Of a stretch of 64,000 bases of DNA, positions 6,584-55,196 are shown in pieces. Positions within the stretch are counted from its first letter, which is position 1. Each line of letters opens with the position of its first letter. The notes beneath the pieces are model-generated. The model ran no database searches and was not told where the DNA came from. It saw nothing but the letters and a program-made list of their open reading frames with translations. The stretch is from Parcubacteria group bacterium. GTDB lineage: Bacteria; Patescibacteriota; Minisyncoccia; Phycocordibacterales; UBA2135. The stretch covers positions 6,970 to 70,969 of the forward strand of contig JACOWN010000007.1 in assembly GCA_016176785.1 (NCBI GenBank), given 5' to 3'. The translations under genes were made by a program, and so were the position numbers.

Positions 6584-7372
6584 ATGCCGCGCCGCGCACT
6601 CTGGTTCATCGGAGCCGTCATCATTATTGCGGGAGCGCTGTGGCGCTTTGATTTTTTGGCGGCGCCGCTCCGAACGGGCGCCCTCACGGCGTTCGCGCCG
6701 GCGTTTCGCGCCGGCGCGGACATTTCTGACGGCGTTATGCGGATGCGCGCGCGGCTCCGTTCCCAGGAAGAACTGGCGGAAGAGAACGCGCTCCTTCGCG
6801 AAGAACTCAATCGGGCGACGACCGAAGCGCTCCTCGCGAAGCGCCGCGCGGAGGAGAACGAATCGCTCAAAGAGATCTTCGGCCGCAGCGGCAACCGTTC
6901 GGGAGCGCTTCTCCTTGCCGCCGTCCTCGCGCGGCCCAACCGGTCGCCGTACGACACCTTTCTCATTGATGTCGGTTCGGAATCCGGCGTCAAGGTCGGC
7001 GACCGCGTATTCGTTCTCGGCGACATCGTTATCGGGACGATTGATGTCGTTTCCGGCTCTGCGTCCCGCGTCAAACTGTTTTCATCTCCCGGAGCCGTGA
7101 TAGACGTGCTCTTCGGTTCGGAACGCATAAGCGTTCCCGCGCGCGGCATCGGCGGCGGCAATTTTGAAGCGCGCCTGCCGCGCGGCGTTGATATCCGCGA
7201 AGGGGACATCGTCGCGTTTCCCGCCATCAGCACCGACATCGCGGGCGTCGTTCAAAAAGTGCTCGGCGATCCGGCCGACTCATTCCAGACAATTCTTTTC
7301 AAAAGTCCCGTTAACGTGTACGAAACGGAATGGGTCGAGGTATTGGTGGGCGAGCGCGTGCACACGCTCTAA
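6584..7372 (+). CDS. mreC: rod shape-determining protein MreC
   Basis: N-terminal TM segment, coiled-coil (LRSQEELAEENALLREEL), C-terminal beta-rich domain; position between mreB and mreD. Confidence 0.8.
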   Translation: MPRRALWFIGAVIIIAGALWRFDFLAAPLRTGALTAFAPAFRAGADISDGVMRMRARLRSQEELAEENALLREELNRATTEALLAKRRAEENESLKEIFGRSGNRSGALLLAAVLARPNRSPYDTFLIDVGSESGVKVGDRVFVLGDIVIGTIDVVSGSASRVKLFSSPGAVIDVLFGSERISVPARGIGGGNFEARLPRGVDIREGDIVAFPAISTDIAGVVQKVLGDPADSFQTILFKSPVNVYETEWVEVLVGERVHTL

Positions 7373-12091: not shown

Positions 12092-12176
12092 TGTGGATAA
12101 ACCGGTAAAAGGACCGTCCTTTTCGCAAAAAGGACGGTCCTTTGAGGGAGTTATCCACAGGCGGTTTGTGTGGATA
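12092..12176. repeat. bipartite repeat locus A: three TTATCCACA-type boxes flanking an inverted pair of AAAGGACSGTCCTTT palindromes
   Basis: TGTGGATAA at 12092, AAAAGGACCGTCCTTT at 12107, AAAAAGGACGGTCCTTT at 12127, TTATCCACA at 12151, TGTGGATAA at 12168; the same bipartite motif recurs at 38264, 48994 and 53858. Confidence 0.6.
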
Positions 12177-12184
12177 ACCGGTTT

Positions 12185-12240
12185 TGCTTGGTGGGTGAAA
12201 GTGGAGTACAATAATAGACAAGTGGTAAGAAGTGGAAAAA
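12185..12240 (+). promoter_or_regulatory. mraZ promoter (TTGCTT-17-TACAAT) with three AAGTGG direct repeats (candidate MraZ operator)
   Basis: -35 at 12185-12190, -10 at 12208-12213; AAGTGG at about 12198, 12219 and 12229 with 21- and 10-bp phasing immediately upstream of the mraZ ATG. Confidence 0.45.
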
Positions 12241-12675
12241 ATGCTCATTGGTGAATACCGCCATTCCATAGACGCAAAAAAACGGCTTTCATTGCCGGCG
12301 AAGTTTCGTAAGGAGATCGGCGGACAAGTGGTGGTGACGCGCGGATTTGATACGTGCCTTTACATTTACCCGCTCAAGGAATGGAGCCGCGTTACCGAAA
12401 AATTGCGCGGGCTCTCCATGGGCCAGCGCGACCAGCGCGGCGTAAATCGTTTTATGCTTGGCGGCGCCGTGGAAGCGGACGTTGACGCGCTGGGGCGCAT
12501 CCTTGTTCCCGATTTTTTGAAAACATTCGCGCGTCTTTCAAACAAAGTGGTGCTCGTCGGCGTGAACGACCACGTTGAGATCTGGGATGAAAAAACATGG
12601 AACGCATATCGTACTCGCATTGAAAAGAAGGCGGATGAATTGGCCGAGAAGTTGGGCGAGATAGGAGCCATTTAG
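12241..12675 (+). CDS. mraZ: transcriptional regulator MraZ
   Basis: MLIGEYRHSIDAKKRLSLPAKFR = the first of the duplicated MraZ/UPF0040 halves; the second half follows; first gene of the dcw cluster. Confidence 0.85.
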   Translation: MLIGEYRHSIDAKKRLSLPAKFRKEIGGQVVVTRGFDTCLYIYPLKEWSRVTEKLRGLSMGQRDQRGVNRFMLGGAVEADVDALGRILVPDFLKTFARLSNKVVLVGVNDHVEIWDEKTWNAYRTRIEKKADELAEKLGEIGAI

Positions 12676-25583: not shown

Positions 25584-25922
25584 ATGAAGTCTGACATACA
25601 CCCGACCTATTACCCGAACGCCACAGTAACCTGCGCGTGCGGCAATTCTTTTACTGTGGGTTCAACGATGGAAAAAATAGAAGTGGAAATTTGCTCCGCG
25701 TGCCATCCGTTCTATACGGGGCAGGGGAAGATTTTGGACACTGCGGGGCGCGTGGAGAAATTCAAGGCGCGCCGCGCGACCGCAGAATTGCGGAAGGGAG
25801 ACCTTGCAAAAAGCAGGGAAAAGAAGGAGGCAAAAAAGGCAAAAAAAACAGAGAGTAAAAAAACAAAAGCCCCCGCGCCCAAAAAACAAAAAACAAAAGC
25901 AAAAACAAAAACCGCGAAGTGA
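25584..25922 (+). CDS. rpmE: ribosomal protein L31 (zinc-binding form) with a lysine-rich tail
   Basis: [10 protein letters not shown]...CxCG...[10 protein letters not shown]. Confidence 0.9.
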
Positions 25923-25940
25923 CCGCTTCGCGGTTTTTGT
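25910..25940 (+). terminator. intrinsic terminator of rpmE
   Basis: 9-bp stem ACCGCGAAG/CTTCGCGGT enclosing the stop codon, followed by TTTTTG. Confidence 0.6.
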
Positions 25941-25943
25941 TGC

Positions 25944-25985
25944 CGCCGTCTATGCTTAAATTCTTAAGAATTTAAGCATAGACGG
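25944..25985. repeat. 42-bp perfect palindrome centred on CTTAAG
   Basis: gccgtctatgcttaaattctt | aagaatttaagcatagacggc, exact reverse complements. Confidence 0.7.
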
Positions 25986-26125
25986 CGAGACACGCGAACG
26001 GAACAGCCCGCTGAAACTGTGTCTTGACAGAGTCGTGTATGTCTGATATCGTATAATCCGGCACAGTTACCTCTACCTCCCCGCAATGTCGCGGGTAACC
26101 ATCAGAATAGGAAAGGAAAGAAGAC

Positions 26126-37197: not shown

Positions 37198-38265
37198 ATG
37201 CCAACACGCAAAGATTTCTACGAAATACTCGGGATCGCGCGTGACGCGACGAAAGACGGCGTTAAAAAAGCGTACCACCGTCTCGCGCGCAAATACCATC
37301 CCGACAATAAAGAAACGGGCGATGAGGCGCGTTTCAAAGAGATTAGCGAAGCGTATCATACGCTTTCTGACGATAAACGGCGCGCGGAGTATGACGCGTA
37401 CGGCAACGTTTTTGCCGGCGCGGAAGGATTTTCCGGATTCGGGCCGTTCGGTGGAGCGCAGGGCATGGAGTTTGACCTCGGCGATATTTTCGGCGAGTTT
37501 TTCGGCGGCTTGGGGGGAGGAGAACGCTCCCGCCGCATGCGGCGCGGGAGAGACATAACGATTGACGCCGAGGTTTCTTTCGCCGAAGCCGCGTTTGGCA
37601 CAGAGCGTTCATTTTTGCTCGGCAAAACAGCGCAGTGCGAGGCGTGCCGCGGCACGGGCGCGGAACCGAATACGGAATTGGCCGTGTGCGCGGCGTGCAA
37701 CGGCCAGGGCCGCGTGCACGAGACGCGCTCGTCGTTCATCGGCACCTTTTCAAGCATCCGCGAGTGCGACGCGTGCCGCGGTGAGGGCCGCGTGCCGAAA
37801 GAGACGTGCCATGTATGCCGCGGCATGGGAGTGGTTAAAAAACAAGAAGAGGTAACCATTACCATCCCCGCCGGTATCGAAGACGGCGGCGTCATCAAGA
37901 TCGGAGAAATGGGAGAAGCGGTCCAGCGCGGCGCATCGGGCGATCTCTATGTCAAAGTGCATGTTGCGCGGCATCCGATATTCCGCCGCGAAGGGCACAA
38001 TCTCATCATGACGCTTGACATTAAACTTTCCGATGCGCTCCTCGGCGCGACGTATCAGATCGGCACGCTTGATGGCGCGACGCTCAAATTGAAGATACCC
38101 GCCGGCGTTACGTTCGGAGAGATATTGCGCGTGAAGGGGAAGGGCGTGCCCATTGAGCGGGGCAAGCGCGGCGACCTCCTGGTTAAACTGAACGTAAATC
38201 TGCCGACCGCGCTTTCGCGCGCCGCGAAGGAACTTTTTGAGAAGCTCCGCAGTGAAGGTATTTAA
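37198..38265 (+). CDS. dnaJ: molecular chaperone DnaJ
   Basis: J domain (DFYEILGI....KKAYHRLARKYHPD), G/F region, four CxxCxGxG zinc repeats. Confidence 0.9.
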   Translation: MPTRKDFYEILGIARDATKDGVKKAYHRLARKYHPDNKETGDEARFKEISEAYHTLSDDKRRAEYDAYGNVFAGAEGFSGFGPFGGAQGMEFDLGDIFGEFFGGLGGGERSRRMRRGRDITIDAEVSFAEAAFGTERSFLLGKTAQCEACRGTGAEPNTELAVCAACNGQGRVHETRSSFIGTFSSIRECDACRGEGRVPKETCHVCRGMGVVKKQEEVTITIPAGIEDGGVIKIGEMGEAVQRGASGDLYVKVHVARHPIFRREGHNLIMTLDIKLSDALLGATYQIGTLDGATLKLKIPAGVTFGEILRVKGKGVPIERGKRGDLLVKLNVNLPTALSRAAKELFEKLRSEGI

Positions 38266-38327
38266 GGACGGTCCTTTTTGAGTTTATCCCCAGAAAACTG
38301 GGGATAAACTCAAAAAGGACCGTCCTT
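38264..38327. repeat. bipartite repeat locus B: 64-bp perfect palindrome (30-bp arms, 4-nt centre)
   Basis: AAGGACGGTCCTTTTTGAGTTTATCCCCAG aaaa CTGGGGATAAACTCAAAAAGGACCGTCCTT; the left arm starts inside the dnaJ stop codon. Confidence 0.7.
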
Positions 38328-38343: not shown

Positions 38344-38368
38344 CCCCGCAGTTGCGGGTTTTTGTTTT
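38344..38368 (+). terminator. intrinsic terminator after dnaJ
   Basis: CCCCGC-agtt-GCGGG followed by TTTTTGTTTT. Confidence 0.6.
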
Positions 38369-38397
38369 AATGATTTTCTTTTGCTATGATGTAAGAC

Positions 38398-39375
38398 ATG
38401 GGTATCGGGAAAAAGCTCCTGCTCTCGGGCGTCAAACCGACCGGCAGGCCGCATATTGGAAATTATTTTGGCGCGATGAAGCAATTTGTGGCACTTCAGA
38501 GCGAGTACGACAGCATTTTTTTTATTGCCGATTATCACGCCCTTACGACGCTTCACGACCCCGTGAAGCTCGCCGAGTACACCCTTGGCGTCGCGCTTGA
38601 TTATCTCGCCATCGGCCTTGACCCGAAGCGGGCGCTTATCTTCAAACAGTCGGACATTCCCGCGCACACGGAACTCGCATGGATTTTTAATTGCATTACG
38701 GCGATGCCGTATCTTTTGCGCGGCCACGCCTATAAAGACGCCGAGGCAAAAAACGAAGAAGTGACCGTCGGCACGTTTGATTACCCGATGCTCATGGCGG
38801 CGGACATATTGCTCTACGACACCGACGTCGTCCCCGTGGGGCAGGACCAGAAACAGCATCTTGAGTTTGCGCGCGACACGGCGGAAAAGTTCAACCGTCT
38901 TTTCGGAGAGACGTTCAAACTTCCCGAGCCGCACATCGTTTCGGAAGTCGCCGCCGTTCCGGGGCTTGACGGACGCAAAATGTCAAAGAGTTACGACAAC
39001 ACGATCCCGCTTTTTGCGGATGATGACGAAATTGAGCGGCTTGTCATGAGCATCGTGACGGATTCAAAGGGAGAACGGGAGCCGAAAGACCCCGCGGCCG
39101 ATACTGTTTTTGCGCTCCATCGGCTGGTGAGCGCGGGGCAGTTGGATGAGCTCAAAAAACGCTACGAAGAAGGAACGATCGGCTACAAAGAGTCAAAAGA
39201 AATACTCGCCGAAAATATGAAAAAGTTCGCCGCGCCGCTTCGCGAGAAACGAAGAGAGTTGGAAGAAAAACCGGAGTATGCGAAAGACGCGCTCGCACAA
39301 GGCGCGGAGGTCGCGCGCAAAAAGTCTGAGGAGAAAATGAAAGAAGTGAGAAGGAAAGTGGGAGTTGCGCTTTAG
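38398..39375 (+). CDS. trpS: tryptophanyl-tRNA synthetase
   Basis: Class I HIGH-like (PTGRPHIGNY) and KMSKS motifs; TTGTTT-16-TATGAT promoter with the -10 lying 7 nt before the ATG. Confidence 0.9.
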   Translation: MGIGKKLLLSGVKPTGRPHIGNYFGAMKQFVALQSEYDSIFFIADYHALTTLHDPVKLAEYTLGVALDYLAIGLDPKRALIFKQSDIPAHTELAWIFNCITAMPYLLRGHAYKDAEAKNEEVTVGTFDYPMLMAADILLYDTDVVPVGQDQKQHLEFARDTAEKFNRLFGETFKLPEPHIVSEVAAVPGLDGRKMSKSYDNTIPLFADDDEIERLVMSIVTDSKGEREPKDPAADTVFALHRLVSAGQLDELKKRYEEGTIGYKESKEILAENMKKFAAPLREKRRELEEKPEYAKDALAQGAEVARKKSEEKMKEVRRKVGVAL

Positions 39376-45562: not shown

Positions 45563-46954
45563 ATGAGGCGGATGTCCGTTGGTTTTTTTGGCGGCGCTCG
45601 CAAAATAGGCGCCAGCTGTCATGCGTTTGCCTTTGAACAAAGAGGTGAACGCCACATCGTCATGGTTGACATTGGGATGGACCCGACTGTCGCATTCACG
45701 CCCCAAACGTGGCTCGAGTGCTTTCCTGACATGGAAGGCTTGGGAGCATTTCTTGACAATTCAACGACGTGCACAGTTGTCATCACGCACGCCCACTTCG
45801 ACCACGTCGGCGGGGTGCCGTACTTTATGCGGTGGGTGCGGGGTCGCTGTCCTGCTCTTTCCGTTACCTTCTTTATGACGGAAGAAACGCGTTCTCTTGC
45901 TGGCGTGACTTGGGACGAAACGGAACAGACCATGCAAAAGGGAGAAGCATGGCGAGAGGCCGAGCCCATCTATTCGGAATGTGACCGTTTTATGACAATG
46001 TCCCGCACCCGCGTGGTCAAACCGGGAGTGTATTACGAGGTGTGCCCCGGCGTGCGGCTTTTCCCGCTGCCAGCAGGTCATATTCTCGGCGCGATCGCGG
46101 TTGGTTTTGAGGCGTTTAACGAACATATCGTCCACACCGGCGACATCTCGTTCGGCGAGCAGCCGTTCATAGAGGGAGCGGCATATATGTCGCTCCCGCA
46201 TACGCGGTTCGTTGTTTCGGAAGCGACGAATCTCGGAGAGACACTGCCGCGTCGGAGTGATGCGGCAGCCGACCTTGGAAACGAGTGCCGCGAAACACTC
46301 AACCGCGGCGGCACGCTGTTGTTACCCGCCTTTCAAATTCACCGCGCGCAGGCGTTGACTGCAATGCTCGTGGCGGAAGGCATTCCTCCCGCGGCGATTC
46401 TTGTGGATGGCAACGCACAACGCGTTCACCGGATCTATCGAAAAATGCTTCCACCCAACAATATACTCACCGGAGTTCCGCTGGCGCGCGACGTTTTTCG
46501 CGGCAAGGACGCGCGTGAAACGCTATTCCTTGAGATGAAAGAAGGGAAAACCTTTCCAAGGATCGTTGTTGCATCAGGCGGCATGCTTCACGGAATTGCC
46601 CAGAAATGGGCAAAAGCGCTATTGCCGAACAAACGGAACGCGATCGTCCTGAACGGTTGGGCGTACGCCGGAAGCCCCGCGGATGTACTCCACCGCGCGG
46701 TGCTTCGTGGCGACGCATCAGTGCAACTGAACGGCGACGAGGTGCCGCTTGAAGCCGGAGTGCGGCGCATTAGGCTCTCTTCGCACGCCTCCGGTCCTGA
46801 GCTTGAAAGGTTGTGGACGGGGTTGAACCCCGATGCCATTATGTTGGTGCACGGAGACGAAAGTAAAATCGAAGATTATCTCAAGAGATACGGACCTCAC
46901 GCGCACGATGCGGGCTTCGTTGTGCCACGTCGCGGAGAGGTCTATGAATTGTAA
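45563..46954 (+). CDS. metallo-beta-lactamase-fold hydrolase (RNA-metabolising beta-CASP-like)
   Basis: VVITHAHFDHVGG (HxHxDH) motif; about 460 aa with a C-terminal domain compatible with beta-CASP; the start at 45563 or 45572 is preferred. Confidence 0.6.
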   Translation: MRRMSVGFFGGARKIGASCHAFAFEQRGERHIVMVDIGMDPTVAFTPQTWLECFPDMEGLGAFLDNSTTCTVVITHAHFDHVGGVPYFMRWVRGRCPALSVTFFMTEETRSLAGVTWDETEQTMQKGEAWREAEPIYSECDRFMTMSRTRVVKPGVYYEVCPGVRLFPLPAGHILGAIAVGFEAFNEHIVHTGDISFGEQPFIEGAAYMSLPHTRFVVSEATNLGETLPRRSDAAADLGNECRETLNRGGTLLLPAFQIHRAQALTAMLVAEGIPPAAILVDGNAQRVHRIYRKMLPPNNILTGVPLARDVFRGKDARETLFLEMKEGKTFPRIVVASGGMLHGIAQKWAKALLPNKRNAIVLNGWAYAGSPADVLHRAVLRGDASVQLNGDEVPLEAGVRRIRLSSHASGPELERLWTGLNPDAIMLVHGDESKIEDYLKRYGPHAHDAGFVVPRRGEVYEL

Positions 46955-46968
46955 TGCCCCGTGCCCGC

Positions 46969-47008
46969 AATCCCTGTCAAGGCGCCGCCTTGACAGGGAT
47001 TTTGTATT
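46969..47008 (+). terminator. intrinsic terminator (14-bp stem) after the MBL hydrolase gene
   Basis: AATCCCTGTCAAGG-cgccg-CCTTGACAGGGATT followed by TTGTATT. Confidence 0.55.
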
Positions 47009-47112
47009 AGTGTAGAATTCCACCAGATCAGGTAGATCATTTCAATGGCAAGAGGCCAAAGACGCGCGTAACATCGTTGCGAGAAGGGACACCTCTCTTT
47101 TCGCAGTCAGCC

Positions 47113-48915
47113 ATGGAGATTCCAATGAGCGATGACGTAAAAACAGGCGCCGCGAACAACGTACCGGCGCCGGAAGGACAGTTCGCGGCGGCTTTCGCCG
47201 CCGCGAGGAGCGCGAAGGAAAGCGGTCGGCAGGTGGCGGCGAAGAAGATGCCGAGCTTCGGCCTTCCCTCTCGTGCTTTCAGGACGCAGATTGAGGAGAG
47301 GCGGAAGATGCGCGATGCGCTCATCCTCCGCGGCAAAAACCTGGTCGAAGCGGTGCTCGACCCGTTGCCTGAAGAGGTGTTTGTCCTCGTTGCGCAGCGC
47401 GACGACTTGGTCGCGCAGATGCAGAAGGAGATCGCCGAGAAGGGTCCCACGGCCCGGCTCGCTTTTGAAGGCGAGCTCAAGCAGTACGACAAGTTTCTCG
47501 AGGGATACCTCGAGGGAACCTTCGACCCCAACCTTCAGCCGCACGAGCGCGCGGCCGTGAAGGAGCGGGCGGGGGTGGCGTACATCCTCTGCCGGGCGCT
47601 CGCGCTTTCTAAAAGGGAGGCGTTCCCCGGTGACGTCATTCGGCTGCTCGAGGGCAGCATCGAGAAGAACCTGCCCGAGGACAAGTTTTCCGCCCTCGCG
47701 CTCGGCGTCGTCACCGTCGTTTCGCCCGAGGCGGAAGCCGTCATCAAGAAGAATCCGCGCCGGAGGGACACCGCCGTCGTCATTATCTTGAACAGGAAGA
47801 AGTCCTTCCTGTTCCAGAACGTCGTCGCCGGAAGGCTTGCCGTCGCGGCGGCGAAGAAGGTCCTCGCGAACCCCGACATCCAGGGGTTCCCGGAGACAAT
47901 CCGGGCTCTCTGGGCGCAGGCCGTCCAGCGGGCCGACGCGAAACACGCCGCGGCGGAGAGGGAGATGCGAAAGGGTCTCTCCCTCGGAGCGACCTTCCAT
48001 GATCTCATGGATCAGAAGGAGGTCGTCATCCTCCTTCGAGACCCAGGAGAGGAGGTGGGGGATCGCATTTACCGCCCGGCAGAGATCAAGGTCGCGTCGG
48101 ACGGCACGAACGTCTGGCCGGTGGACGCGGAAGGCCGCGGCGCCGGTAGCGTCCTCTCGTTCGTGAAGAGGGGGATCAGAATTCCCCAGAAGTACTTCGG
48201 CGACTCCTTCCTCAAGGGGGGCGGGCAGCGGCCCGACCTCGCCGGGGCTGAGTTCGCCTTCTGGGCGACGGTGAGACGAGCGATCCAAAACGAAGCAAAC
48301 CTCGCCACGCTCAAGGCCGAGAGCGTGGCGAAGTTCGAGGCGGAGCTCACCGAAGCCGCCTTGCGTGGCAAAAGCCACGCCGCCGAGAAGGGGATTGCCT
48401 ACCTCTCCGAGGCGGAATTTCAGAGCGGCCGCGACGGTGTCGCGGCGGTCTACGTCACGGGGGCGTGGTACGACAAGGAGCGGGATATCAAGGTTTACTA
48501 TCCCGTCATCGTCGTATCTCGCCACGGCGGCAAGGAAGGGCAGAAAAAGATCACTCTCGTTGCCACGATCGGCAACGCAAGCAAGATCTTCGAGGGCTCT
48601 TCCGTCTGCGTCGGCGGAGAGTACTACGAGAGCGACGCCGGACGCGCACAGCCCTACAGCGGCTGCGCATGGCCGCTGAGATCCGTTCTTTGGCTCCACT
48701 CTTCGCAGTTGTCGAAGAGGATGAAGAAAGGAACGGATGAGGAGGTGGAAGCGTCGTCTGCCAGTCCCGCGCCTTCGTCCGACGCGCTCACGACGAGCGG
48801 CACAGACGGCAAGACCCTTGCCGCGGGCAACCCTACTCCCTTCAGTTGCCCGAAGTGCAACTTCATCGCAAAGAACAAGGGCGGGCTTACCGCCCACATG
48901 AAGAAGCACGAGTAG
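47113..48915 (+). CDS. large hypothetical protein with a C-terminal classical C2H2 zinc finger (GC3-rich island II)
   Basis: About 600 aa; C-terminus FSCPKCNFIAKNKGGLTAHMKKHE = C-x2-C-x12-H-x3-H; GGAG RBS before the ATG at 47125; terminator at 48951-48987; strongly GC3-biased codons. Confidence 0.55.
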   Translation: MEIPMSDDVKTGAANNVPAPEGQFAAAFAAARSAKESGRQVAAKKMPSFGLPSRAFRTQIEERRKMRDALILRGKNLVEAVLDPLPEEVFVLVAQRDDLVAQMQKEIAEKGPTARLAFEGELKQYDKFLEGYLEGTFDPNLQPHERAAVKERAGVAYILCRALALSKREAFPGDVIRLLEGSIEKNLPEDKFSALALGVVTVVSPEAEAVIKKNPRRRDTAVVIILNRKKSFLFQNVVAGRLAVAAAKKVLANPDIQGFPETIRALWAQAVQRADAKHAAAEREMRKGLSLGATFHDLMDQKEVVILLRDPGEEVGDRIYRPAEIKVASDGTNVWPVDAEGRGAGSVLSFVKRGIRIPQKYFGDSFLKGGGQRPDLAGAEFAFWATVRRAIQNEANLATLKAESVAKFEAELTEAALRGKSHAAEKGIAYLSEAEFQSGRDGVAAVYVTGAWYDKERDIKVYYPVIVVSRHGGKEGQKKITLVATIGNASKIFEGSSVCVGGEYYESDAGRAQPYSGCAWPLRSVLWLHSSQLSKRMKKGTDEEVEASSASPAPSSDALTTSGTDGKTLAAGNPTPFSCPKCNFIAKNKGGLTAHMKKHE

Positions 48916-48993: not shown

Positions 48994-49026
48994 TGTGGAT
49001 AACCAAGCCCAAGGACGGTCCTTTTT
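48994..49026. repeat. bipartite repeat locus C (TGTGGATAA + AAGGACGGTCCTTTTT) upstream of mraY
   Basis: TGTGGATAA at 48994-49002, AAGGACGGTCCTTTTT at 49011-49026. Confidence 0.6.
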
Positions 49027-49080
49027 GGGCCTTATTTTGCGCACTTTGAGCGGCAAAAAAAACGTGTTATATTCAAACCA

Positions 49081-50139
49081 ATGGAAGTCCTCTCCGTTGT
49101 CAAAGTATTTGTGCCAGCGACAGCCGCTTTTTTTGTTGGCATTGTTCTCACGCCGTTTCTCACGCATTTTCTTTACAAACATAAATTGTGGCGCAAGGAA
49201 GCGAAACAGACGACGATCAGTGGCGCGGAAGCCGCGGTAACCCGTTCTCTCGGCAGTCAGCAAAATGAAACAAAAGTTCCTCGCATGGGCGGTATCGTCA
49301 TTTGGGCATCGGTGCTGCTGACGACGCTCGGATTCTGGCTTTTCAAAGATCTCTTCCCTTCCACGCTCACGGAGAAATTGAACTTTTTAAGCAGGAACCA
49401 GACATGGCTCCCTCTTTTTACGCTTGGCGCAGCGTCGCTTGCCGGATTGCTTGATGACGCGCTCGTCGTCTCCGGAAGGGGGCGCTACGCGAGCGGCGGA
49501 TTGCCGCTTCATGTTCGCATCCTTATCGTGCTCGCGATCGGCGCTCTCGGCGGGTGGTGGTTTTTTACCAAATTGGGAGTGAACGCGGTCGCGGTCCCGT
49601 TCGCGGGAGAGATTTTCCTCGGTCTTCTGTTCGTGCCGTTTTTCATGCTCGTGATGCTCGCGCTTTTTTCCGGAAGCGTCATTGACGGCATTGACGGGCT
49701 TGCCGGCGGCATCATGGCGATTATTTTCGCCGCGTACAGCATCATCGCTTTTTTCCAGGATCAGATTGACATCGCCGCTTTTTCCGCCGTCGTTACGGGA
49801 GGACTTCTCGCGTTTTTGTGGTTTAATATCCCCCCCGCGCGGTTTTACATGTCGGAAACCGGCATGCTCGGGCTTACGACCTCGCTCACCGTCATCGCAT
49901 TTTTAACCGACGCGGTCTTTGTGTTGCCGCTCATTGCGTTTCCGCTTGTGGCGGCTTCCGGCTCCGTTATCGTTCAGCTTCTTTCCAAAAAATTCTTCGG
50001 CGTAAAGGTTTTCCGCGCGGCTCCCTTGCACCATCACTTTGAAGCGATCGGCTGGCCTTCATACAAAGTAACCATGCGGTTCTGGGTTCTGGGTGCTATT
50101 TTCGCGCTTCTGGGCGTCGTCGTGGCGCTTGTCGGATAA
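49081..50139 (+). CDS. mraY: phospho-N-acetylmuramoyl-pentapeptide transferase
   Basis: 10-TM GT4/MraY topology; conserved DD, ..VIDGIDGLAGG.. motifs. Confidence 0.9.
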   Translation: MEVLSVVKVFVPATAAFFVGIVLTPFLTHFLYKHKLWRKEAKQTTISGAEAAVTRSLGSQQNETKVPRMGGIVIWASVLLTTLGFWLFKDLFPSTLTEKLNFLSRNQTWLPLFTLGAASLAGLLDDALVVSGRGRYASGGLPLHVRILIVLAIGALGGWWFFTKLGVNAVAVPFAGEIFLGLLFVPFFMLVMLALFSGSVIDGIDGLAGGIMAIIFAAYSIIAFFQDQIDIAAFSAVVTGGLLAFLWFNIPPARFYMSETGMLGLTTSLTVIAFLTDAVFVLPLIAFPLVAASGSVIVQLLSKKFFGVKVFRAAPLHHHFEAIGWPSYKVTMRFWVLGAIFALLGVVVALVG

Positions 50140-53849: not shown

Positions 53850-55196
53850 ATGTTTTCTGTGGATAACCTGTGGAAAAACCCGAAAAGGACCGTCCTTTTT
53901 GCCGGGGTTGCCGCGCTCGCGTTTTTGGGATACTTGGGATATGCGCCAGGAAATGCGCCGGCGGTCTTTTCTGCGGGGCTTATTGATGAGTTGCGTTCAA
54001 AGATACAGGAACGGAACAGCGAAATTGAGAAATTGGAGCAGGAAATCAAACGCTACGAAACGGAAATCACCACCATCAACAAAGCAACGCGGACGCTAAC
54101 GTCAACGGTTGCCGAAATAACGACAACGGAACGGAAACTTCGCACGGACATTACGCTTACGGAGCGAAAAATCAACACCGCCGCGCTTACGATACAAGCG
54201 CTCTCCGATGAGATCGCCGACAAAGAAGCGCGCATCAAAACCAACACCGCCGCGATCGGCGAGATCGTGCGGCGGATGCATGAACTGGAGTCGCGCTCGC
54301 TCATAGAAATATTTCTTTCCCGCGACACGTTTTCAAGTTTCTGGGACATTGTGGAAAATCTCGGGCGTCTTGAAAAAGGGGTTGCGGCAAACGTTGCCGA
54401 GCTTGAGTTTCTGAAGGAAGGATTTCTTACGGCGCGTTCCGAACGCGAGGCGGAAAAAACGCGGCAGACAAAACTCCGCAACCAACTCGCGGACCAAAAG
54501 GAACTTGTGGCGGCGAGCCGCGCACAGCAGGAAAAGCTCTTGCGCGAAACCAAAAACAAAGAAACGCTTTACCAAAATCTTCTTGAGGAACGCCTCGCGC
54601 GCAAAGAAGCGCTTGAGTCCGAGATCGCGGCGTTTGAAGACCAGCTGCGCGTTGAAATTGACCCGTCCAGTTTGCCGCCGACGGGGATGGGGGGCGTGCT
54701 TTCATGGCCGCTCGCAAGCGTTACCGTCACGCAGTATTTCGGCAACACGCCGTTCGCGAGCAAAAATCCACAGATCTATAACGGCGGCGGGCACAACGGC
54801 ATAGACCTGCGCGCTTCCGTAGGAACGCCCGTTTTGGCGGCGGCAAACGGCATCGTGGTGGACACGGGCGACACCGACACTGGCTGTTACGGCGCTTCTT
54901 ACGGCAAATGGGTACTGGTGAAGCACTACAACAACCTCGCGACCTTGTATGCGCACCTCTCGCTTATTCGCGTCGCGGCGGGGGAAGAAGTCAGGACCGG
55001 CGACTTGGTCGGATACAGCGGCAACACCGGATATTCAACGGGGCCGCACCTTCACTTTTCCGTGTATGCCGCTTCGGCGGTCCGCGTTACGGACGCATAC
55101 AAAAGCAAAGTATGCAAAACGAACCTCAAACTCCCGCTCTCGCCGCGAAACGGATACCTCAATCCGCTGTCGTATCTGCCGGCACTTGATAATTAG
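53850..55196 (+). CDS. M23-family peptidase with N-terminal TM anchor and long coiled coil (EnvC/LytM-like)
   Basis: C-terminal LytM domain (GxHNGIDL..., ..YAHLS..., GNTGYSTGPHLHF); about 250-aa coiled coil. Confidence 0.8.
   Translation: MFSVDNLWKNPKRTVLFAGVAALAFLGYLGYAPGNAPAVFSAGLIDELRSKIQERNSEIEKLEQEIKRYETEITTINKATRTLTSTVAEITTTERKLRTDITLTERKINTAALTIQALSDEIADKEARIKTNTAAIGEIVRRMHELESRSLIEIFLSRDTFSSFWDIVENLGRLEKGVAANVAELEFLKEGFLTARSEREAEKTRQTKLRNQLADQKELVAASRAQQEKLLRETKNKETLYQNLLEERLARKEALESEIAAFEDQLRVEIDPSSLPPTGMGGVLSWPLASVTVTQYFGNTPFASKNPQIYNGGGHNGIDLRASVGTPVLAAANGIVVDTGDTDTGCYGASYGKWVLVKHYNNLATLYAHLSLIRVAAGEEVRTGDLVGYSGNTGYSTGPHLHFSVYAASAVRVTDAYKSKVCKTNLKLPLSPRNGYLNPLSYLPALDN
53858..53900. 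repeat. bipartite repeat locus D (TGTGGATAA, TGTGGAAAA, AAAAGGACCGTCCTTTTT) overlapping the 5' end of the M23 peptidase CDS
   Basis: Encodes ..VDNLWKNPKRTVLF.. in frame if the ATG at 53850 is the true start. Confidence 0.6.

Follow-up and report, generated by a model that had tools for sequence, protein, structure and literature searches.

What is the perfect 64-bp palindrome that lies between dnaJ and trpS in a Parcubacteria group bacterium (GenBank assembly GCA_016176785.1, contig JACOWN010000007.1), and does it serve either of these genes? It occupies positions 38264-38327 of the 64,000-nucleotide stretch analyzed here (contig positions 6,970 to 70,969, hereafter the window). We consider it quite likely that the palindrome is a REPIN-type element, i.e. 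two inverted copies, placed head-to-head (HH), of a unit resembling the repetitive extragenic palindromic (REP) sequences, and that its family is tied to a Y1 transposase similar to the tyrosine transposases associated with REPs (RAYTs); it is best read as parasitic or domesticated and not as a regulator of dnaJ or trpS. The observations behind this assignment are a dispersed repeat family with an extragenic bias and with doublets, its physical linkage, in relatives, to Y1 genes, and the resemblance to RAYTs, in fold and in motifs, of the proteins that these genes encode. The sequence-only reading of the locus described correctly the structure, the bipartite composition, the dispensability for termination and the position of the nearby -10 element, but it gave the element no identity. 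Its main suggestions were a cruciform, a small RNA or a rearrangement hotspot, in place of which the evidence points to a REP/REPIN-type family with a Y1 transposase; a selfish insertion, mentioned there only as what would speak against its idea, agrees with this identification.

The palindrome reads AAGGACGGTCCTTTTTGAGTTTATCCCCAG-aaaa-CTGGGGATAAACTCAAAAAGGACCGTCCTT, with 30-nt arms that are 100% complementary and a 4-nt centre (38294-38297) that would form the loop of a large hairpin or cruciform, and it is the longest inverted repeat of the window. Arm 1 (38264-38293) is one REP-like unit in the order hairpin core, spacer, box (AAGGACGGTCCTT-TTTGAGT-TTATCCCCAG), and arm 2 (38298-38327) is its inverted copy (CTGGGGATAA-ACTCAAA-AAGGACCGTCCTT); arms and centre have no strand assigned. 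The hairpin-core module GGACGGTCC (38266-38274, likewise strandless) has a second copy, GGACCGTCC, at 38317-38325, while the box module TTATCCCCA (38284-38292, forward strand), one mismatch from TTATCCACA, has its mirror copy TGGGGATAA at 38299-38307; TTATCCCCAG, the inner module, likewise differs from TTATCCACA by one mismatch. The boxes of the two arms face each other, which makes the palindrome an HH doublet. The 30-mer arm is present at only these two sites in the window, with 0 chance matches expected (100 shuffles). The predicted RNA fold of the palindrome with its flanks has an energy of -68.8 kcal/mol (z = -10), and the predicted single-stranded DNA (ssDNA) fold, a single 30-bp hairpin, has an energy of -37.2 kcal/mol (z = -13.8), so the earlier description of a very stable hairpin holds. 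The identical sequence is found in three Logan contigs that were assembled independently, from other runs (SRR12113433, SRR12113430, SRR12113422), and a fourth (L004, SRR12113385; fetched loci are denoted by such L numbers) stops exactly at the last base of arm 1, as assemblers do on meeting a palindrome; palindromes of this family fragment the short-read assemblies of the source organism.

The bipartite repeat from which the palindrome had been said to be built is real, as the unit recurs at three further loci of the window. It consists of the box CTGTGGATAA (in the palindrome the variant CTGGGGATAA), followed after 8-10 nt by AAGGACSGTCCTT; AAGGAC[G/C]GTCCTT, the outer module, is by itself a small palindrome, its hairpin-forming form being AAGGAC-S-GTCCTT. 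Altogether, seven units are found at four loci in 64 kb, with 9 matches to a 16-mer against 0.05 expected and 6 copies of the core GGACSGTCC against 0.59 expected. All five exact TTATCCACA/TGTGGATAA boxes of the window lie 10-20 nt from a GGACSGTCC core, and 5/6 cores fall into the non-coding 7.2% (P ~1e-5), the coding fraction of 92.8% coming from a crude gene map. The statistics of association given here are based on a few dozen non-redundant sites.

Besides the palindrome (locus B), the family comprises a tail-to-tail (TT) doublet and two singlets. The TT doublet (locus A, 12092-12159, no strand), with its boxes outside and its cores inside, has a terminator on one side and the mraZ promoter region on the other; its 32-nt arms are 84% complementary around a 4-nt centre, and it is adjoined by a solitary exact box TGTGGATAA at 12169-12177 on the reverse strand. 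The two doublets, which both show the REPIN architecture of long arms with a 4-nt spacer, are the two longest inverted repeats of the window. The singlet CTGTGGATAA-CCAAGCCC-AAGGACGGTCCTTTTT (locus C, 48994-49026, forward strand) separates a terminator from the promoter of a family-4 glycosyltransferase gene (49081). The other singlet (locus D, 53858-53900, forward strand) consists of two tandem boxes, TGTGGATAA and TGTGGAAAA, with an 11-nt period, followed by AAAAGGACCGTCCTTTTT, and overlaps the first ~15 codons of an M23-peptidase open reading frame (ORF) at 53850-55196 (MFSVDNLWKNPKRTVLF...). This ORF begins 3 nt past the gltX stop, and the REP unit appears, from the translation, to encode a cytoplasmic N-terminus ahead of the membrane anchor of the peptidase.

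The unit was found in divergent Patescibacteria of 34-57% GC. A scan of one genome per species with the pattern GGATAA-N6-9-AAGGACSGTCCTT identified 11 loci, 6/11 of which carry the full CTGTGGATAA although the pattern required GGATAA only; three of the six full-box loci are labelled Patescibacteria (Saccharibacteria, Vogelbacteria, Paceibacterota), the remaining three have generic labels ("uncultured bacterium" twice, "bacterium" once); the GC content spans 34-53%. A metagenome scan identified 67 loci, most of them copies of the element with the full box, while a minority in coding sequence look like chance matches; several contigs are multi-copy, and a related contig of 68.7 kb has at least 7 sites. 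Viral contigs gave two matches only, both chance- or coding-like, and a literature search for the 13-mer or the 9-mer gave only irrelevant primer or coding matches.

Among the full-box metagenome copies we found head-to-head, tail-to-tail and box-hairpin-box arrangements, including perfect 47-bp palindromes of the form box-stem-GGACSGTCC-stem-box, and one locus (L027) with the same centre, TTATCCCCA(C/G)...CTGGGGATAA, and the same HH architecture as the window palindrome. The search fixed one box only, and a partner box was present at the exact mirror offset in 16/38 units. The stem flanks vary by lineage yet pair (CCGCAAGGAC..GTCCTTGCGG, GGGAGGAC..GTCCTCC, CCCCAGGAC..GTCCTGGGG, GAGGACCGCCCTCCG-TATA-CGGAGGGCGGTCCTC), i.e. 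the units are palindromic and hairpin-forming around the core, with compensatory stem changes between lineages. The extragenic location seen in the window holds elsewhere: 32 box-carrying sites are intergenic (21 between tandem, 8 between convergent and 3 between divergent genes), 12 were called coding and 14 lie at contig edges, as classified with a crude ORF caller that also miscalls one known intergenic copy. Copies are usually positioned just past a terminator hairpin, and no target-site duplications around symmetric copies were evident by eye.

The link to a transposase was found in relatives. In a contig family represented by L028 (at least seven metagenomes), two unit copies, spaced 781 nt, enclose a 238-aa ORF whose Pfam Y1_Tnp match exceeds the gathering score. 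A tblastn search with this protein identified homologues of 44-48% identity in L015, L081, L042 and L045, all four selected by the DNA motif alone, with the Y1 gene no more than ~100 nt from the motif. Right 3' of the Y1 gene, L042/L045 carry GGACGGGCC-TTGCCCCCAC-TTATCCCCAG-16 nt-CTGGGGATAA-CTT-TGTGGATAA-ACAGGGGCAA-GGCCCGTCC, i.e. the same architecture and the same variant box as the window palindrome. In the reverse test, Y1 homologues from four lineages were selected by protein homology alone and their flanks were then inspected: palindromic repeats were present on both sides of the Y1 gene in 4/4 lineages, and the box in 2/4. In L087 (Yonathbacteria), CCGAGGACCGCCCTCCG-TATA-CGGAGGGCGGTCCTCGG is found on either side of the gene, with AAAGTTATCCACAG after the downstream copy; in L090 (Roizmanbacteria), inverted composite copies (palindrome-box-box-palindrome) stand on each side; in L091/L092 (Kaiserbacteria), a variant hairpin without the box flanks the gene on both sides; and in L089 (a Parcubacteria metagenome-assembled genome), a different palindrome is present on both sides, with a AAGGACCGTCCTT palindrome 6 kb off. 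Taken over both selections, unit copies flank the Y1 gene in the L028 family, L015, L042/L045, L081, L087 and L090. One REP-type hairpin at such a locus (AAAAAGGACCGCCCTT-GGGAATTCAAAA-AAGGGCGGTCCTTTTT, L087 5617-5664) has flanking A- and T-runs in the form of a bidirectional terminator, and REP hairpins may, to judge from this arrangement, double as terminators in some lineages.

All 65 members of the Y1 family match Pfam Y1_Tnp, and the catalytic residues H83/H85 (HUH, N-H-F-H), Y143 and N147 (Tyr+4; Y-I-H-L-N-P) are invariant among them. In E. coli TnpA_REP, N119 occupies the corresponding position four residues after Y115, while IS608 has Gln there (PMC6006769). The sole NCBIfam match is NF047646, "REP-associated tyrosine transposase" (38-44 bits, E 1e-9 to 3e-11), and the protein would accordingly be a divergent relative, not an equivalog, of this curated family. 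A phmmer search of the PDB with one Y1 protein found nothing, and because sequence searches of the PDB were insignificant a comparison of folds was needed: the AlphaFold (AF2) model (pLDDT 92.3) is closest to 4ER8 (TnpA_REP-type), with the TnpA proteins of IS608 and ISDra2 as next-best matches. The protein carries a ~75-aa helical C-terminal extension. The Y1 locus is syntenic in three lineages, where a ~1,200-aa neighbour is 42-45% identical, and the Y1 proteins of L087 and L089 share 64% identity, above that of the neighbour. Single-copy, vertically inherited behaviour is what defines RAYTs as opposed to insertion sequences (PMC5581495), and the Y1 gene in relatives appears to be single-locus and vertically inherited in the same manner.

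In published usage, REPs are extragenic palindromes that occur repeatedly and have a conserved head 5' of the hairpin, inverted REP doublets forming hairpins are REPINs (PMC3116915), and a RAYT gene flanked by its REPs is a REPtron (PMC3116915, PMC3733652, PMC3333891, PMC6006769). Following these definitions, we class the palindrome as REPIN-type, the element at 12092-12159 as a TT doublet and the other two loci as singlets. Among REP dimers the HH form predominates and the TT form is also frequent, and in one REP family GTGG heads are documented in place of GTAG (PMC3733652); E. coli TnpA_REP requires a 5' tetranucleotide and cleaves between C and T (PMC3333891); and canonical REPs, which are species-specific, have their tetranucleotide head directly at the foot of the hairpin (PMC6006769). 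The family head CTGTGGATAA(C) contains GTGG with CT before it, which by analogy would parallel the E. coli cleavage site next to GT[AG]G, and in fully symmetric copies this GTGG-containing box belongs to the stem.

Like the REPtrons of E. coli K-12 and P. fluorescens SBW25, the system consists of short extragenic palindromes that are repeated and bear, on one side, an unpaired and conserved head; as in REP, bacterial interspersed mosaic element (BIME) and REPIN systems, most copies are inverted doublets (HH or TT) that fold as one long hairpin; and in relatives they bracket an apparently single-locus, vertically inherited HUH/Y1 gene, whose product has a fold closest to 4ER8 and, like E. coli TnpA_REP, Asn at Tyr+4. 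The CT-GTGG sequence within the head may be a further likeness, comparable to C-T cleavage adjacent to GT[AG]G. Unlike the REP tetranucleotide, the head is here a box of 9-11 nt (CTGTGGATAAC) placed ~8 nt from the core; unlike canonical REPs, it is common to classes of Patescibacteria and appears widely conserved while the hairpin drifts with the lineage; the core is a perfect palindrome with one central base and no loop; and, unlike curated RAYTs, the Y1 protein has the helical extension and scores below the NCBIfam cut-off.

The ends of IS200/IS605 elements carry subterminal hairpins and a guide tetranucleotide and are processed as ssDNA by TnpA(Y1). The HUH/Y1 domain and the recognition logic of a hairpin plus a 5' sequence are common to these elements (IS608, ISDra2) and to the family described here, which differs from them in having no insertion sequence (IS) structure, a single syntenic gene without tnpB, gene-less dispersed repeats of 30-70 bp, and, at Tyr+4, Asn in place of Gln. 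Most knowledge of REP/REPIN-RAYT systems comes from Proteobacteria and a few further phyla, and our literature search found no description of one in Patescibacteria. The kind of system is already known, and the variant and its phylum appear to be new.

On the model of E. coli TnpA_REP and IS200/IS605, the element would fold into a hairpin when the DNA is single-stranded (e.g. on the lagging-strand template), and the Y1 enzyme, presumably encoded in the source genome, would bind the hairpin and the head, cleave, and rejoin the strand, whereby copies would be created or removed. The doublet would be the likely replicating unit and the singlets decaying remnants. The insertion point would have been precisely the dnaJ stop codon, ahead of the terminator that belongs to the operon, and precise excision would join dnaJ...TA directly to GGTGGTCC.

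Several findings weigh against this assignment. No Y1/RAYT gene was found in the window by tblastn; in two of the four protein-selected lineages, the repeats beside the Y1 gene are without the box; the scores of 38-44 bits do not reach the NF047646 equivalog cut-off of 80 bits; and the family profile gave only insignificant matches in the PDB (E 0.3-0.9 for ISDra2 TnpA and 4ER8). The head, with its 9-11 nt at ~8 nt from the core and its conservation across lineages of 34-57% GC, is unlike a REP head, and the core GGAC-S-GTCC, with its single central base, forms alone only a short stem with a triloop. Every assembly that spans the site carries the palindrome, and no sign of mobility was seen. 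Finally, the head equals the DnaA-box consensus, which leaves room for a role of a host protein that the REP model does not predict.

The 9-mer box is a 9/9 match to the DnaA-box consensus TTATCCACA, and its five exact copies in the window are all within elements; the palindrome's own boxes (TTATCCCCA) have a mismatch at position 7, outside the tolerated positions. The variants found at the mirror position, which the search left unconstrained (TTATCCACA in eight cases, TTATGCACA in two, TTATACACA and TTTTGCACA in one each), fit the consensus TTWTNCACA (PMC6006769). Tandem boxes with a period of 11-12 nt recur (window 53858-53877, L010, L032, L048, L090). Isolated AGTTATCCACA boxes without a hairpin are located ~30 nt upstream of a conserved TATAATGT (TATAAT) in L087 (5790-5860) and L089 (5075-5140), in the syntenic spacer before the ~1,200-aa surface-protein-like gene; in L090, too, this spacer contains an isolated box (position 1084), which does not align with those of L087 and L089. 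From these placements the box may serve a function that does not depend on the REP hairpin. Our literature search on the DnaA-box motif in Patescibacteria found nothing relevant.

It could be argued that these are genuine DnaA boxes of the host, with the 13-bp palindrome binding a dimeric partner, and that they serve DnaA titration or reactivation or the control of transcription (mraZ, trpS, cell-wall genes). The consensus match, the confinement of all exact window copies to elements, the variation at the mirror position, the tandem arrays and the isolated boxes before TATAAT would agree with this, as would the near-constant distance between box and palindrome, the retention of the head across lineages with differing hairpins, and the position of most copies past terminators, in spacers that are probably untranscribed. 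For an operator, however, a tight physical association with Y1 genes, seen in at least 7 lineages, is unexpected; the distribution is patchy, with none in 7-16 kb of the nearest relatives; the mosaic arrangements vary (HH, TT, box-hairpin-box, palindrome-box-palindrome); the neighbouring genes differ between copies and form no consistent set; the hairpin arms covary between lineages, which indicates selection for the fold and not for fixed protein contacts; and the window has no dnaA or oriC signature. We therefore regard this explanation on its own as unlikely, while noting that host DnaA sites and a REP origin are not mutually exclusive.

A combination of the two is somewhat easier to envisage, if still doubtful: the head could be a functional DnaA box, and an ancient, vertically inherited RAYT-REPIN system could have come to recruit the replication initiator in Patescibacteria. 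DnaA acts at a DnaA box in the outside end of Tn5/IS50, and here it could likewise be a host factor through which cleavage or transposition is coupled to replication; alternatively, the host could have co-opted dozens of REP-borne boxes as a DnaA-titration/reactivation network in genomes poor in regulators. Either direction would explain the conservation of the head over 34-57% GC despite the drift of the hairpin, and the identity of head and DnaA box would tie a domesticated ssDNA transposase system to replication initiation in a concrete and testable way.

In E. coli, datA and DARS are sites of DnaA titration and reactivation, respectively, and the DnaA-box clusters (DBCs) of B. subtilis lie outside oriC. 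The boxes of our family resemble these extra-oriC sites in the 9-mer TTATCCACA, the TTWTNCACA variation and the occasional tandem arrays with 11-12 nt period; they differ in that there is about one locus per 16 kb, always with a hairpin palindrome, with a transposase gene adjacent in relatives and with no oriC or dnaA context here. Among Y1 transposases, the TIRYT group (subclass 2.1.2) has a C-terminus similar to DnaA domain IV (Bac_DnaA_C-like) and repeats unlike TTWTNCACA (Quentin et al. 2018, PMC6006769). Our system is like TIRYT in that a Y1 lineage again raises a link to DnaA-box-type DNA recognition, and its reverse in that the repeats match the DnaA box while the Y1 proteins show no such domain: a DnaA-domain-IV-like C-terminus was considered and rejected, as neither a Bac_DnaA_C nor a helix-turn-helix (HTH) signal was found by Pfam in the 65 members, and no such fold was matched. 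Similarly, an oriC, terminus or dif site, suggested by the DnaA boxes together with a GC-skew maximum near 50-54 kb, was discarded, since signatures of DnaA, ParB, Xer and RpmH are absent from the six-frame translations of the window and of the fetched loci.

We next consider whether the palindrome could act in the RNA of the dnaK-dnaJ operon, either by protecting the 3' end from exonucleases or by slowing ribosome release and thus tuning DnaJ. The dnaJ gene (37198-38265, forward strand; Pfam DnaJ, DnaJ_C, DnaJ_CXXCXGXG) ends with a TAA codon at 38263-38265, the last two bases of which are the first two of the palindrome, so that "immediately after dnaJ", as the locus had been described, is accurate to the point of overlap. 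The terminator scan reports a separate intrinsic-terminator-like hairpin, CCCGC-AGTT-GCGGG (CCCGCAGTTGCGGG) with a T-run, at 38345-38368 on the forward strand; it had been noted before at a distance of 16 nt, and we measured 17 nt. The palindrome, followed by GGTGGTCCCCC, does not itself qualify as an intrinsic terminator, and since a hairpin with its own T-run comes after it, the view that it is not needed for termination was sound. As the operon terminator comes after it, the palindrome should be transcribed as part of the 3' end of dnaJ, where it may stabilize the mRNA end or impede ribosome release as a by-product.

This position, with the hairpin starting within the stop codon, and the very stable fold are what an RNA element would require; moreover, REP-containing mRNAs are known substrates of, or barriers to, exonucleases (PMC12320835), and REPs have been implicated in mRNA stabilization, termination and translation control (PMC6006769, PMC3733652). 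The other window copies and most copies elsewhere, however, stand after terminators or between convergent genes and in both orientations, so a role specific to dnaJ cannot explain the family. In addition, L085, the closest relative with dnaJ, has no such hairpin after this gene, and no Rfam family matches: at gathering thresholds the whole window gave no match, and at the palindrome locus, at E <= 1, there were only sub-threshold models of eukaryotic miRNA precursors, a generic response to long hairpins. An RNA-level control of the operon as the explanation of the palindrome is thus quite improbable.

The DnaJ C-terminus (...EGI*) is native. We observed that the end of the dnaJ coding sequence (38226-38252, 27 nt) is 70% identical to the palindrome arm (shuffle p ~7e-4), and that the C-terminus (...KELFEKLRSEGI*) is homologous to that of a relative without the element. 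The similarity could be due to chance or to microhomology at the insertion site, and because the C-terminus is native we treat it as a curiosity. The element is probably incidental to both dnaJ and trpS.

Comparison with relatives had been suggested as a check. TrpS homologues place the window in Patescibacteria (Paceibacterota-like), and the nearest relatives are only ~70% identical. In the nearest retrievable ones, neither box nor core was found (7.4 kb of L085, 16.4 kb of L086), which falls on the side of a selfish insertion; the test is weak, because at ~70% TrpS identity these relatives are distant. Judging by these loci, the element family appears to be patchy among related lineages. The direct adjacency of dnaJ and trpS (38265/38398), at which the palindrome is placed, is itself a synteny breakpoint with respect to L085 and L086: in L085 (2484-6001) three genes separate dnaJ from trpS (a 177-aa protein, an epimerase and a HisKA_7TM kinase), and in L086 (3817-5412) a HisKA_7TM kinase, a UCP032817-like protein and a peptidase lie upstream of trpS, with dnaJ outside the retrieved stretch. 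L086 keeps the gene order trpS-aspS-scpA...GT4-ftsW-murG-gltX-M23. The dnaJ-trpS junction, not seen in either relative, may be derived here, and the broken synteny is compatible with the idea of a rearrangement hotspot.

Two other explanations can be dismissed. A heat-shock operator of the dnaK operon (CIRCE/HrcA or HAIR/HspR type), suggested by the location in the dnaK-dnaJ operon and by a resemblance of TTGAGT...ACTCAA in the arms to HAIR half-sites, is effectively refuted: with as many as 3 mismatches allowed, CIRCE (TTAGCACTC-N9-GAGTGCTAA) is unmatched in the entire window and HAIR (CTTGAGT-N7-ACTCAAG) at the locus; 22 nt instead of 7 separate the half-sites; the element occupies the operon's 3' end and not its promoter; and the same element adjoins unrelated genes. 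An assembly artefact or a chance palindrome has hardly any probability left: assemblers can make or break palindromes, and one Logan contig does terminate within this one, but the window and three independent assemblies agree, shuffles give no matches, and homologous architectures occur in unrelated metagenomes. For the family as a whole we also rejected an MraZ box as the source of the GTGG core, since single boxes with a palindrome do not fit MraZ arrays, and a DNA-uptake sequence, the density being far too low.

The syntenic Y1 locus in several classes of the candidate phyla radiation (CPR) and the head shared across GC contents point to an old, vertically transmitted association. This is of interest since CPR genomes are usually regarded as overly streamlined for repeats, and palindromes of this kind lie at synteny breakpoints and could be mistaken in their annotation for operators, terminators or origin-like clusters of DnaA boxes.

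The window contains further features that lie beside or outside the REP family. Immediately after the cluster at locus A, just upstream of mraZ (12232-12675), the segment 12180-12231 contains direct repeats, GTGGG-N5-GTGGA (12191-12205), followed by TACAAT, which look like an MraZ operator of the mraZ-rsmH promoter. Upstream of locus C, 47077-48915 encodes a 612-aa protein with a weak, sub-threshold C2H2 zinc-finger match (residues 589-612) and no other Pfam domain. A 44-bp perfect palindrome without spacer (CGCCGTCTATGCTTAAATTCTT directly followed by AAGAATTTAAGCATAGACGGCG), unrelated to the family and absent from 92/92 fetched loci, is situated at 25944-25987, with a terminator hairpin (25904-25941) before it and a TTGACA...TATAAT-like promoter near 26024-26056 after it, and may from this position be an operator. 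A 33-bp palindrome, AATCCCTGTCAAGGCG-c-CGCCTTGACAGGGATT (46969-47001), also outside the REP family, lies just past a gene ending at 46954.

The trpS gene (38398-39375, forward strand) starts with an ATG at 38398, and an extended -10-like sequence, TGcTATGAT, ends 7 nt before it (38382-38390, forward strand), precisely where a promoter -10 had been placed; the putative promoter is recognized by this extended -10 alone, as a consensus scan found no complete sigma-70-type promoter. In L085 (5980-6003) and L086 (5395-5414), trpS is similarly preceded by TGGTACTAT and 7-8 nt before the ATG, and from its upstream sequence the trpS start looks leaderless. No Shine-Dalgarno sequence was seen in the few starts checked by eye (trpS and the GT4 gene). 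A TAnnnT -10-like hexamer ending 5-9 nt before the start codon was found for 14/68 crude gene calls, compared to 3.3% of random positions (examples at 38382-38400, 49066-49083, 27654 and 9366), which suggests that leaderless mRNAs may be frequent.

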